This document shows, in pieces, positions 3,127 to 4,225 of a stretch of DNA of 4,849 nt. The stretch's first letter is position 1, and every line of letters begins with the position of its first letter. The notes below the pieces were generated by a model that worked only from the letters and a program-made list of their open reading frames with translations, was not told the DNA's origin and made no database searches. Position numbers and translations under genes: made by a program. Source of the stretch: a virus (taxonomy: Duplodnaviria > Heunggongvirae > Uroviricota > Caudoviricetes); the IMG/VR virus record IMGVR_UViG_2645728078_000019; one strand, written 5' to 3'.

Positions 3127-3396
3127 ATGAATATACTAAAAAAACTTATGCAGCGTCTGTGTGGTTGCGGAAAGCATGATGGCCGTGAACACGTGCAGTT
3201 GCTTACAGCACAACTGCGACTGGGACCGGCAGACATTCTGGAGTCAGATGAGAATGGCATTATTCCGGAGCAGGACAGGGTAATCACACAGGTGGTGATA
3301 CTGGATGCAGATAAAAAGCAGATACAGTGTGTGGTAAGACCGCTGCAAATCCTGCGTGCTGACGGGGTGTGGGAAAATATTGGCGGGATGAAGTAA
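3127..3396 (+). CDS. Small protein (89 aa) carrying a free-standing copy of the tail fibre C-terminal domain; function unknown (possible fibre accessory or assembly factor, or alternative fibre-tip cassette)
   Basis: ATG at 3127 is one nucleotide after the stf TGA (3123-3125), with GGAG-like sequence about 9 nt upstream. Residues 27-89 (LRLGPADILESDENGIIPEQDRVITQVVILDADKKQIQCVVRPLQILRADGVWENI) align by hand with Stf residues 367-424 (FRLGPASIIETNSNGWFPDTDGALITGLTFLDPKDATQVQGLFRHLQVRFGDGPWQDV) at roughly 35-40 percent identity. N-terminal 26 aa contain a CGCG motif. The in-frame ATG at 2995 lies inside stf and is not preferred. Confidence 0.6.
   Translation: MNILKKLMQRLCGCGKHDGREHVQLLTAQLRLGPADILESDENGIIPEQDRVITQVVILDADKKQIQCVVRPLQILRADGVWENIGGMK
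3245..3380. repeat. Direct repeat copy 1 (3' part of the small fibre-domain ORF)
   Basis: From GGCATTATTCCGGAGCAGGACAGGGTAATCAC (3256 onward) this matches the segment beginning at 4101; by manual alignment about 13 mismatches over about 123 bases. Confidence 0.85.
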
Positions 3397-3412
3397 CCCG
3401 ACAGCTTCACAA

Positions 3413-3440
3413 AACCGGAGTCCGGCTCCGGTTTTTGTTG
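3413..3440 (+). terminator. Intrinsic terminator after the small fibre-domain ORF
   Basis: Stem CCGGAG (3415-3420), loop TCCGG, stem CTCCGG (3426-3431), followed by TTTTTGTTG. Flanking AA and TT could extend the stem. Confidence 0.65.
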
Positions 3441-3616
3441 TCATGTATAGGGGATATTTGTTATTAGAGTGTGAAGTAATAAACATGTTAATACGATGGA
3501 GTGAAGGATGCCTTTAAGGAGCAGTGATATGTCCATCTTGTTCCCTGGAGGGGGAATCATAAATTCTGATTGCGACCGAGGCATGGAACACTACTGTAGT
3601 TCAGGGAAGTTCGGCG
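3441..3616 (+). promoter_or_regulatory. AT-rich intergenic region upstream of the regulator gene; presumed promoter/regulatory region (no confident -35/-10 assignment)
   Basis: Sits between a terminator and the regulator ATG. Markedly more AT-rich than the tail genes. Contains TTGTTA and TAATAA-like hexamers, but spacing is not convincing by eye. Confidence 0.3.
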
Positions 3617-4159
3617 ATGAAGCTCATTCTTGCGACGCGTAATTATTATCTGGAATATGGTTTGCGTTTGTTACTGAAAGGATGCCGTGTAATTCTGGCT
3701 CAAGAATTTTTTATGCCGGAAAATCGCAGGGTTATTCTGGATAGTAAAGAATCCTGGTTAATAATCTGTGATAGTCAGTTGGGCCATTTAATGCGCAGCA
3801 TGTTTCAGGGACGCCGTTTTATTCAGCTGGATCTGGAAGCGTTGAAAGGGGGACATGATATACATAATGCTGTGCGTAACAGATTGTGGACCTGGAACAA
3901 AAAAGCACGGGCACTGACGATGTCAGAGATGGTGGTGATGTTTGGATATATCTACCGTCAGTTGCGTCCGTCCCATCTCGCCAGTGAGATGAGGGTAAAC
4001 ATAAAAACAGTTAACACTTTCCTGTATTCAGGGCTGGCGAAAAATGGGCTCAAAAGAAGTAGTGTAAGGTTGCTGGCAATTTCTGAGAACAAGCGAATAG
4101 GGCATTATTCCGGAGCAGGACAGGGTAATCACGCAGGTGGTGATACTGGATGCGGATAA
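3617..4159 (+). CDS. LuxR/GerE-family helix-turn-helix transcriptional regulator, GadE/YhiF-like size and layout (possibly related to the prophage-encoded Psr regulators of EHEC)
   Basis: 180 aa. RBS-like AGGGAAG at 3603-3609, 7 nt before the ATG. Residues about 101-156 (LTMSEMVVMFGYIYRQLRPSHLASEMRVNIKTVNTFLYSGLAKNGLKRSSVRLLAI) fit the LuxR-type HTH pattern seen in GerE (LT.RE.EV...IA..L.IS.KTV..H..N...KLG). The N-terminal ~100 aa look like a degenerate receiver-like domain. The last ~20 codons are read from repeat copy 2 in a shifted frame. The Psr link is from memory and unverified. Confidence 0.6.
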   Translation: MKLILATRNYYLEYGLRLLLKGCRVILAQEFFMPENRRVILDSKESWLIICDSQLGHLMRSMFQGRRFIQLDLEALKGGHDIHNAVRNRLWTWNKKARALTMSEMVVMFGYIYRQLRPSHLASEMRVNIKTVNTFLYSGLAKNGLKRSSVRLLAISENKRIGHYSGAGQGNHAGGDTGCG

Positions 4160-4225
4160 AAAGCCGATACAGTGCGTGGTGAGGCCGCTGCAAATTCGGT
4201 GTGCTGATGGGACGAGGGAAAAATT
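4090..4225. repeat. Direct repeat copy 2 (spans the 3' end of the regulator ORF and the region upstream of nleG)
   Basis: Same orientation as copy 1, offset about 845 bp. The repeat also explains the shared peptide segment in the minus-strand shadow ORFs 2502..3410 and 4028..4267 (ICSGLTTHCI.FLSASSITTCVITLSCSGIMP). Confidence 0.85.

Follow-up and report, generated by a model that had tools for sequence, protein, structure and literature searches.

A truncated copy of a tail-fibre gene between a prophage regulator and nleG, probably a relic of recombination at the cargo end of lambda-like prophages

The window analysed here is a stretch of 4,849 nucleotides of the virus record IMGVR_UViG_2645728078_000019, and all its genes and features discussed below lie on the plus strand. 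A side tail fibre gene (Stf) of the EPclA type (1812-3125) is followed by an intact small ORF of 89 aa (3127-3396), a 180-aa orphan NarL/LuxR-like regulator ORF (3617-4159), a fragment resembling the small ORF (4101-4234) and, as the downstream cargo, a gene of an nleG family T3SS effector (4289-4849; PF06416, E 3.5e-45, and PGAP). In locus L001 the order is J, lom, stf, small ORF, regulator, nleG, then nleA and chromosomal genes. The locus, having T3SS effector genes distal to J-lom-stf at the prophage end, belongs to what has been termed exchangeable effector loci (EELs) in lambda-like prophages of EHEC and EPEC (Tobe, 2006, cited in Nakamura, 2021, PMC8112680), with which it shares a set of effectors (nleG, nleA, nleH), variable among prophages, in the interval from the tail-fibre genes to the prophage end.

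The Stf gene, delimited by Pfam (PF08400, PF01391, PF06820) and by PGAP in L001, encodes the succession PfN, coiled coil, collagen repeats and PfC. This is the architecture of EPclA, for which experiments established the domain arrangement and the trimerising PfC knob (Ghosh, 2012, PMC3368898; a term search of its text returned no mention of a downstream PfC-only gene or of truncated copies). PfC (PF06820, Phage_fiber_C, gathering score 25 bits) is found three times in the window: at residues 363-426 of Stf (copy 1, encoded by 2898-3089; E 6e-36, 123 bits), at residues 28-89 of the small ORF (copy 2, encoded by 3208-3393; E 1e-35, 122.4 bits) and in the translation of 4101-4220 (copy 3; E 5.5e-17, 62.3 bits, profile positions 17-58 of 64). 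The proposal of an earlier note on this DNA that the fibre C-terminal module occurs in three copies is thereby borne out; one of its sentences named the truncated copy the second, while it is the third. The accompanying picture of an array of fibre-tip cassettes did not hold. Copies 1 and 2 are alike at the protein level only (40% aa identity, E 8e-16), and their DNA, 55.6% identical when aligned by codons and with a longest exact block of 9 nt, has too little identity for homologous exchange. Moreover, none of the 80 viral-contig loci retrieved via the small ORF carries a second intact same-strand small ORF after the fibre gene; in L011 a second intact copy lies on the opposite strand.

Among 35 distinct alleles of the small ORF, pN/pS stands at 0.09 for the PfC part, against 0.45 for the 27 N-terminal codons. 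Judging by these substitutions, the small ORF, complete with its own start and stop codons, is under purifying selection and represents a functional PfC-only gene type, from which copy 3 departs in having no start, a TAG upstream, and its stop and terminator deleted. The same pair of a collagen-like tail fibre gene and an 89-aa PfC-only ORF is known as ORF67 and ORF68 of Sp5, the Stx2 phage of E. coli O157 Sakai, where ORF68 is among the non-essential late genes and its homology to the fibre C-terminus was already noted (Mondal, 2016, PMC5155283). A locus from an O157 Stx2-type prophage (L003) has Stf-PfC and the 89-aa ORF, with 93.7% DNA identity to window positions 3100-3512, and regulator remnants next. 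Sp5 lacks a third, truncated copy behind the regulator remnant, and the window differs from Sp5 in representing a lambda-like prophage of the long-tailed kind, whose genes include lom and a PfN-type Stf. Thus the first two copies are already in the literature, and the fragment, too, is already a RefSeq pseudogene, PGAP giving 4101-4220 as an incomplete "phage tail fiber C-terminal domain-containing protein".

Copies 2 and 3 form a direct repeat. Self-comparison by blastn aligned 3256-3391, within the intact small ORF, with 4101-4234 (87.5% identity over 136 columns, 15 mismatches, 2 gaps, E 2e-40), and a repeat search gave 3256-3382 against 4101-4227 (127 nt, 88%, spacing 845). The best ungapped 60-nt window contains 58 matches, shuffled sequences (n = 100) reaching at most 33, and the arms share an exact block of 32 nt (3256-3287). 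The near-identity at the DNA level seen earlier by hand is therefore significant and the repeat real, the estimate of about 13 mismatches over 123 bases being close to the 15 over 127 measured.

The distribution of the differences is uneven. Six of the first seven (3288-3351) fall on codon position 3 in the small-ORF frame counted from 3127 (binomial P = 0.007), as had been claimed, and dN/dS between the copies over the first 32 codons is 0.04; the last 10 codons, on the other hand, contain 7 non-synonymous changes and 1 synonymous change. Ancestry as coding sequence, also supposed earlier, explains the synonymous bias, and 6 of the 15 differences are polymorphisms that also occur among intact small-ORF alleles. 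The remaining 9 are private to copy 3, all within its final 60 nt (4165-4224), and comprise 3 synonymous and 6 non-synonymous substitutions. Together with a deletion of 67 nt relative to intact alleles, which removed the gene's final 8 codons and its stop as well as the terminator hairpin, these mostly non-synonymous private changes indicate decay after truncation. The deletion site lies at 4222-4237, short repeats making its endpoint ambiguous, and was placed by alignment with L080 and L033, loci where nleG directly follows an intact small ORF and its hairpin. Apart from this 67-nt gap, copy 3 and the leader downstream of it align with those loci throughout, and the nleG leader (4251-4288) is common to loci with an intact small ORF directly before nleG. 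It is this alignment that bears out the earlier reading of the region as a recombination scar.

The hairpin in question, of terminator type and with a U run, lies 3' of the small ORF at 3411-3436 (fold energy -21.2 kcal/mol, z -5.0); it rests on the RNA fold, a consensus terminator scan having given no terminator. The same hairpin stands 3' of the small ORFs and of their remnants in nearly all related loci; after copy 3 it is absent, RNA folding of 4215-4290 giving no stable hairpin, and no Rfam family was found in the window. Comparison across loci revealed a conserved boundary motif behind the hairpin (3437-3463), composed of TGTTGTCATGT, a variable part and GATRTTTGTTA, with cargo-specific sequence from 3464 onward. 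The sequences after the boundary fall into 17 clusters (80% identity over 30 nt), including one spurious pattern match and two apparent variants of larger clusters. In the window the cargo begins with the regulator-cassette leader (3464-3616), conserved as DNA in alignment with L085, in which the boundary motif is also kept upstream of a diverged regulator. A conserved upstream ORF of 44 aa (3508-3642) overlaps the regulator start and has the same relative place in L085-L087.

As to the regulator ORF itself, its conserved core stops at about 4086 (...VRLLAI), just before a junction zone at 4087-4100 that separates it from the fibre-gene remnant; the DNA homology to other regulator lineages ends at about 4080-4086. 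The last 19 codons, from 4101 on, are repeat sequence read in a shifted frame. The ORF thus crosses the junction in another frame, and its stop (TAA, 4157-4159) falls within the repeat, just as the earlier note had it. The note also had the truncated copy cut exactly where the regulator segment ends, with TAG immediately upstream; the TAG is there (4098-4100, in frame of the remnant), but the edge at 4101 is not exact, as degenerate small-ORF homology probably reaches 11-20 nt further 5' and L085 keeps CAGACGAGAAC, matching small-ORF positions 3245-3255. The junction can therefore be placed only within about 4087-4100, which puts the truncation at about codon 38-43 of the small ORF. Homologues of the regulator have 156-175 aa, with cores ending in ...LLAI and unrelated tails; relative to this family the 180-aa ORF is full-length, although PGAP gives it as a set of fragments. 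The AT-rich character ascribed to the segment is real but moderate (38-48% GC, compared with 50% in the small ORF).

The AlphaFold model of the 180-aa ORF (mean pLDDT 77.7; residues 156-180 below 50) predicts a receiver-like alpha/beta domain and four C-terminal helices, and a disordered tail. The best Foldseek matches are EvgA, RcsB and FixJ (E about 6e-4 to 1e-3, probability 0.96-0.99, TM just about 0.35), the C-terminal domain of DosR gives a TMt of 0.67, and a PDB profile search yielded weak GerE/LuxR matches (E 0.6-0.9). No Pfam family, GerE included, matches the ORF. Asp52 is invariant among the homologues, and no kinase gene adjoins the regulator in L001. On these structural grounds we regard the ORF as a likely, uncharacterised NarL/LuxR-like regulator; compared with EvgA, RcsB and FixJ, its predicted fold is alike, but it is shorter, its sequence similarity is marginal and no partner kinase is nearby. 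PsrA and PsrB, considered as candidates, are of the AraC/XylS type according to a review (z1789/z2104 homologues), whereas the ORF has a LuxR-like predicted fold and no AraC Pfam match; nor does any other O-island regulator named in that review match it.

In four E. coli genome loci and the 80 viral contigs all 11 copy-3-like sequences lie downstream of the regulator. The fragment is 98-100% conserved among them and always links the regulator to the nleG leader. Intact alleles differ from copy 3 at no fewer than 10 of 124 positions, and from one another at no more than 9. The composite occurs in 115 of 5426 complete E. coli genomes, and also in Stx1a phages and in phage 2B8. Outside the fibre context, L085-L087 carry a diverged regulator (70% aa and 78% DNA identity) followed at the same point, in another frame, by a PF06820 remnant (tblastn E 2e-5; Pfam E 1e-4, profile positions 13-59, the L085 remnant scoring 23 bits, just under the 25-bit cut-off), and their DNA alignment with the window is continuous across the regulator/fragment junction. 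A junction common to a regulator lineage of 78% identity indicates that regulator and fragment travel as one old unit and speaks against a recent local insertion, though independent joins at the same point in the two lineages are an unlikely alternative. Among the searches, "two-copy" O157 matches (59% coverage) proved to be a single small ORF matched by both arms, together with a deleted regulator remnant.

A version without the regulator, which the earlier note had predicted, was found in L095 and L096, two complete E. coli genomes (from Japan and the USA) that carry a crossover between a small ORF and copy 3. Up to nt 137 their intact 5' small ORF belongs to the L011/L082 allele type, copy 3 sequence follows from nt 193 at the latest (133/134 identity), and both genomes run on into the same truncated nleG as L070 and L004. 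These single-piece hybrids were recovered with a synthetic hybrid query of 266 nt, a 506-nt query giving only two-piece places of the window type. These comparisons yielded no parent allele of copy 3 that is uninterrupted and non-mosaic, L095 itself being mosaic.

We suppose, with good though not full confidence, that copy 3 is what remains, without function, of a PfC-only gene which became joined illegitimately to a regulator moron and then decayed. The likely course of events is as follows. At the cargo end of one lambda-like prophage, a PfC-only gene with its terminator would once have stood directly upstream of an nleG cassette, while the moron with the NarL/LuxR-like regulator would already have been downstream of the intact small ORF and terminator of another prophage. 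An illegitimate (non-homologous) join should have attached the moron, by its 3' end, to the PfC-only gene at about codon 38-43, giving the order Stf, small ORF, terminator, regulator, small-ORF remnant and nleG, in which a repeat of 127-136 nt brackets a unit of 845 bp. Decay of the remnant would have come next, through the 67-nt deletion of stop and terminator and the mostly non-synonymous private substitutions, and the regulator ORF would since have read 19 codons of the remnant in the other frame before its stop. Having no fibre role, the remnant would persist as a homology patch, at which recombination with intact small ORFs of other prophages could swap arms or delete the regulator. One more step has to be invoked, since the DNA of the regulator lineages differs by 22% and copy 3 is nevertheless 88-93% identical to living small ORFs: gene conversion of its 5' half, which would fit the fact that 4101-4164 contains no private changes. 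In lambdoid phages, morons and mosaic joints are a familiar phenomenon (Hendrix, Juhala): lower-GC, autonomous cargo sits between conserved genes, and novel joints arise by illegitimate recombination and are spread by homologous recombination in the flanks. The joint described here differs from that concept in that 130 nt of the upstream gene stayed behind in duplicate, and this partial copy acts as a homology patch.

Small-ORF remnants with other 5' breakpoints precede other cargo in related loci, which makes such remnants a general by-product of effector-locus growth rather than something specific to the regulator. One could go further and regard the small-ORF 3' end, the terminator hairpin and the ...GATGTTTGTTA motif as a portable joint, that is, a dedicated site of cassette exchange, perhaps targeted by a recombinase or by Red, which precedes essentially every cargo cassette and allows integron-like stacking and swapping of effectors and regulators, copy 3 being one such joint. 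Well over a dozen unrelated cargo leaders do begin at the same nucleotide position behind the motif, and remnants of the joint sit between stacked cassettes; still, we hold this extension to be unlikely.

Also unlikely, in our opinion, is that the fragment has been kept as useful, either because it gives the regulator a C-terminal extension and a stop or because, as a spacer without a terminator, it permits read-through into nleG from the regulator promoter. The deletion of the terminator makes co-transcription of regulator and nleG possible, the fragment is 98-100% conserved in 11/11 copy-3-type sequences, always in the same position, and the diverged lineage also retains it as a regulator tail. 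The tail, however, is predicted to be disordered, and homologues have unrelated tails or none; the sole nearby sigma-70-like match (4263-4290) belongs to the nleG leader, and matches of this kind occur at chance frequency. The near-identity of the fragment across the recovered loci could result from some selected role, but it may mirror only recent spread.

Less credible still is a silent reservoir, in which the small ORF and the truncated copy would be stored fibre tips that recombine into Stf and change the host range. The three PF06820 copies are in tandem orientation, the small ORF is under purifying selection, and ORF68 of Sp5 was suggested as a possible "intragenomic reservoir", although the same paper reports no frameshift signal fusing ORF67 and ORF68 (Mondal, 2016, PMC5155283). 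Nevertheless, the low DNA identity of Stf PfC and the small ORF speaks against exchange, and in 80/80 related loci the fibre gene's own C-terminal domain is closer to the Stf type than to the small-ORF query. Copy 3 lacks the first 16 profile positions and a stop, its private changes are mostly non-synonymous, and we found no evidence of a fibre-tip switching system.

Equally improbable is an event in situ, be it insertion of a regulator element into one small ORF with a target duplication of about 130 bp or a tandem duplication that was later split, even though direct repeats do surround an 845-bp unit of lower GC. The arms are 12% different, with copy 3 sharing 6/15 differences with the small-ORF alleles of other prophages; what stands upstream is a whole gene, terminator included, and not a split target; and the unit of regulator and fragment occurs without an upstream small ORF in L085-L087 and L004. 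Neither near-identical arms in some lineage nor an element with defined ends was seen, and an ordinary transposon or IS insertion was rejected, as there are no transposase and no terminal inverted repeats and the arms, at 127-136 nt, have diverged by 12%.

Repeats or alternative versions of a fibre C-terminal region adjoin the fibre gene in the Mu G segment with Gin, in the P1 C segment with Cin and in diversity-generating retroelements. The window differs from all of these: its repeats are direct, with no bracketing inverted repeat and no invertase or other recombinase ORF in the window or among the L001 neighbours, and it has no reverse transcriptase ORF, the mismatches being mixed (A>G 4, C>T 3, T>C 2, T>A 2, and others) and not adenine-specific.

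Variation of EELs has been attributed mainly to IS events, integration of prophages into prophages and recombination (Nakamura, 2021, PMC8112680); a term search of that article returned no mention of repeated fibre-gene remnants at cassette boundaries, and none was found by term searches of the accessible literature. The probable relic joint described above is an ordinary kind of phage mosaicism and leaves current views of it unchanged, although it has still been used for recombination, as other genomes show. It provides a sequence-level example of how the virulence-cargo end of EHEC and EPEC prophages grows: what is probably an illegitimate join of new cargo leaves the last phage gene partly duplicated, and this duplicate then serves as a homology patch for later exchange or loss of cargo, as in L095 and L096. 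For annotation, the fragment is best left as a pseudogene and not described as a fibre variant, and the 180-aa ORF is one of the unstudied prophage-borne NarL-like regulators adjoining T3SS effectors. The loss of the terminator may place nleG under read-through from this regulator.

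The window is the tail end of an E. coli lambda-like prophage (4849 bases) and comprises the C-terminus of J (1-1080), lom (1148-1747), a side tail fibre gene with collagen repeats (1812-3125), an 89-aa ORF (3127-3396) followed by a hairpin terminator, a segment of lower GC content that holds a 180-aa ORF (3617-4159), and an nleG effector gene (4289-4849). Many complete E. coli genomes carry near-identical DNA, in which RefSeq names the 89-aa ORF 'phage tail fiber C-terminal domain-containing protein' and gives 4101-4220, annotated as an incomplete pseudogene, that name too. The composite was found in 115 of 5426 complete E. 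coli genomes, as well as in Stx1a-converting phages and phage 2B8.

A repeat search of the window revealed a 127-nt direct repeat (3256-3382 versus 4101-4227, 88% identity), which self-blastn lengthens to 3256-3391 versus 4101-4234 (87.5%, E 2e-40); its best 60-nt ungapped window has 58 matches, against at most 33 in shuffles. Pfam places PF06820 (Phage_fiber_C, PfC) at three sites: residues 363-426 of the side tail fibre Stf (copy 1), residues 28-89 of the small 89-aa ORF (copy 2), and the translation of the downstream fragment (copy 3), which spans profile positions 17-58. The repeated fibre cassette described in the earlier note, with its three copies and the near-identity of the last two in DNA, is thus confirmed. 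Its finer points also hold: of the first 7 positions at which copies 2 and 3 differ, 6 are third codon positions, TAG is present in the frame of the fragment (4098-4100), and the 180-aa ORF enters the repeat in another frame, with its stop at 4157-4159. Copies 1 and 2 are related at the protein level only (40% identity, E 8e-16), their codon-aligned DNA being 55.6% identical with a longest exact block of 9 nt.

The origin of copy 3 is indicated by two related loci (L080 and L033) in which nleG directly follows an intact small ORF. Aligned with them, copy 3 and its downstream sequence match through the small ORF and the nleG leader (TTTAAGTCTGGAGTTCAAATTAAAA.AGGGAG...ATG), and differ in two respects: the 5' cut and a 67-nt gap that takes away the final eight codons together with the stop codon and terminator hairpin. 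The hairpin after copy 2 is strong (-21.2 kcal/mol, z -5.0), and RNA folding found none after copy 3. Across 4 E. coli genome loci and 80 viral contigs there are 11 copy-3-like sequences, every one of them 3' of the 180-aa ORF; between copy 3 and the nearest intact allele in this set 10 of 124 positions differ, and between intact alleles at most 9. Copies 2 and 3 show 15 differences, six of which are polymorphisms also found in intact alleles and account for most of the synonymous bias noted earlier. The remaining nine are private changes of copy 3, confined to its last 60 nt, and divide into three synonymous and six non-synonymous ones. This substitution pattern is that of a coding allele which decayed after its truncation. 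In the frame of the fragment lies a 53-codon ORF (GTG 4137 to 4298), probably not expressed, which passes the site of the lost stop and terminator and reaches the nleG start region.

The 180-aa ORF matches neither Pfam nor NCBIfam, and the homologous proteins found in E. coli (156-175 aa) are unnamed. Its AlphaFold model (mean pLDDT 77.7) has a receiver-like alpha/beta domain followed by four helices. Since the best structural matches of the model are EvgA, RcsB and FixJ, and a sequence profile search of the PDB gave GerE/LuxR proteins only, albeit weakly, it seems reasonable to label this uncharacterised protein a regulator. Identity with PsrA/PsrB was ruled out, those proteins being AraC-type. 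Compared with its family the ORF is full-length, and it is an intact CDS (gp25) in the RefSeq record of phage 2B8. PGAP does not call it in the genome locus of the window type (L001, 9336-9800), giving instead two pseudogene pieces, each an 'incomplete hypothetical protein' (window 3398-3517 and 3713-3862); the miscall is likely due to a reference that is a 62-aa truncated O157 protein. A 44-aa upstream ORF (3508-3642) overlaps the regulator start codon and may be a leader peptide or uORF; an ORF of equal length and position exists in the diverged lineage of loci L085-L087, manual translation showing the kept residues MPL..MS..G.G..DCD..M.H..S.K.GDE..SC.A. In other lambdoid prophages (L088-L093) homologues of 157-175 aa are the last cargo gene, located after a YadA-anchor (Eib-like) gene and before dinI, adjoining the chromosome; they seem to form a family of NarL-like orphan regulators, so far unstudied, that is carried by prophages. 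The core shared by the family members stops at ...VRLLAI (about 4086), past which the tails of homologues are unrelated, and residues 156-180 of the regulator are disordered in the model. A selected role for the fragment, either as the tail of the regulator or as a terminator-less link allowing co-transcription of the regulator and nleG, we consider quite improbable.

The fibre of the window is of the EPclA type, the two proteins being alike in PfC residues 363-426, which in EPclA form a trimerisation knob that nucleates the collagen helix (Ghosh et al. 2012, PMC3368898). Within the Stf gene, 2150-2890 holds periodic repeats rich in Ala, Ser and Glu (families D4) and then collagen repeats of the Gly-X-Y type (D1, D3), which fits the coiled-coil and collagen stalk described for EPclA. 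The homologue of the small ORF in the Stx2 phage Sp5, ORF68, is among the non-essential late genes, with a PfC domain noted, and was speculated to be a possible reservoir for fibre variation (Mondal et al. 2016, PMC5155283). Over 35 distinct intact alleles taken from related loci, the PfC part has a pN/pS of 0.09 and the first 27 codons one of 0.45, which shows that the small ORF is a real gene under constraint. A system switching fibre tips between these copies is not supported: the PfC sequences of Stf and the small ORF are too diverged to recombine, the window contains no invertase, reverse transcriptase or inverted repeat, the mismatch spectrum of copies 2 and 3 is not adenine-specific, and in all 80 related loci the C-terminal domain of the fibre gene is closer to the Stf-type than to the small-ORF query.

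As to the age of the truncated copy, a second regulator lineage, P0003 (70% protein and 78% DNA identity), occurs in a non-fibre context, adjoining PerC, EspG or IS genes (L085-L087). Its 3' end overlaps a PfC remnant (tblastn E 2e-5; Pfam E 1e-4, profile positions 13-59) that starts at the same point of the domain as in the window, in a different frame; the DNA alignment of the two lineages is unbroken across the junction of regulator and remnant, and the motif that follows the small-ORF terminator is kept upstream of the P0003 regulator. No PfC remnant was found in the other regulator lineages, placed between a YadA-like gene and dinI. The junction and upstream motif common to both lineages suggest that the regulator cassette and the remnant were joined, and have travelled together, since before the lineages diverged. 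The original breakpoint was probably slightly 5' of 4101, within about 4087-4100, because the L085 remnant retains sequence matching 3245-3255 of the small ORF. Transposon insertion with a long duplicated target lacks support: the window is without a transposase, the repeat arms are 12% diverged, and the regulator-fragment unit also occurs without the upstream copy.

A 266-nt query representing the crossover product between the repeat arms gave a single uninterrupted match in two complete E. coli genomes, OkiPb01711 (Japan) and UTAK-1 (USA). At both loci (L095 and L096) the regulator is absent, and downstream of the Stf gene lies a small ORF whose first 137 nt are an allele of the L011/L082 type: in its first 129 nt there are 1-3 differences from that type, against 10-14 of 129 when compared with copy 2 of any regulator-carrying locus in the set. 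By position 193 at the latest the sequence has become copy 3 (133/134 identity), and it runs into the truncated nleG also seen in L070, L072 and L004. The crossover interval corresponds to window 4110-4164. The regulator-free version predicted by the earlier note thus exists, as a mosaic from homologous exchange and not a pristine ancestor, and the repeat has served recombination. The hybrid small ORFs (L095 3948-4300, L096 3945-4300; NZ_AP042673.1, NZ_CP157165.1) encode a read-through ORF of >100 aa, a pseudogene according to PGAP. If the regulator-remnant junction is older than the lineage split, copy 3 is closer to living small ORFs than neutral decay predicts; from the zero private changes in 4101-4164 and the crossing-over demonstrated there, we infer that gene conversion of its 5' half would explain the excess similarity.

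Other 3' remnants of the small ORF, with differing 5' breakpoints, sit between cargo genes: from about codon 50 (L044, L048, L011, L006), from about codon 67 (L033, L070, L072), or the 3' UTR only (L017 and relatives). After each type come the same hairpin and motif, and L006 and L044 have one remnant type but different cargo beyond it; L095 has a RefSeq-annotated small-ORF fragment just upstream of nleH1-2. The motif (window 3437-3463, also L002-L084) consists of TGTTGTCATGT, 6-9 variable bases and GATRTTTGTTA; it follows the small-ORF terminator, its end is a nucleotide-precise boundary, and hairpin and motif recur between stacked cassettes. In about 80 loci the sequences after it form 17 clusters (80% identity over 30 nt) with a common start nucleotide, among them nleG variants and the regulator cassette; of the 17, one results from a spurious pattern match and two are apparently variants of larger clusters. 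The simplest account would be that cargo is stacked through illegitimate joins that leave the last backbone gene partly duplicated, after which homologous recombination in the patch of small-ORF 3' end, hairpin and motif would swap the downstream content, the cargo boundary staying sharp because homology stops at the motif. Downstream, the regulator-fragment-leader unit in L002, L012, L043, L013 and L016 precedes an nleG 75% or 35% identical to that of the window, identity breaking just past the start codon (e.g., L012 ...GTTATGCCATTTACA), which suggests recombination inside the common leader and first codons of nleG paralogues. In L004, L070, L072, L095 and L096, loci with and without the regulator, nleG breaks off after about codon 22, with the same junction throughout (...CTTGGAATGGAATTTGTAAAAAAACGCC), followed in L004 by an inverted nleA. 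At L003 4400-4700 (O157:H7 SS17, Stx2-type prophage) a regulator cassette remnant lies directly 3' of the small ORF; in this Sp5-type prophage it is chimeric and internally deleted, the 5' part being 94.5% identical to the window and the 3' part a different allele in another frame.

The recombination scar proposed in the earlier note therefore stands in substance, while its framing as an array of fibre-tip cassettes does not. Copies 1 and 2 were already known from the literature, and copy 3 is flagged as a pseudogene in RefSeq; the present analysis adds where the scar came from, how old it is and that it moves as one unit with the regulator, direct evidence of its continued recombination, and the finding that similar remnants recur where cargo is joined. 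The composite exemplifies ordinary phage mosaicism.
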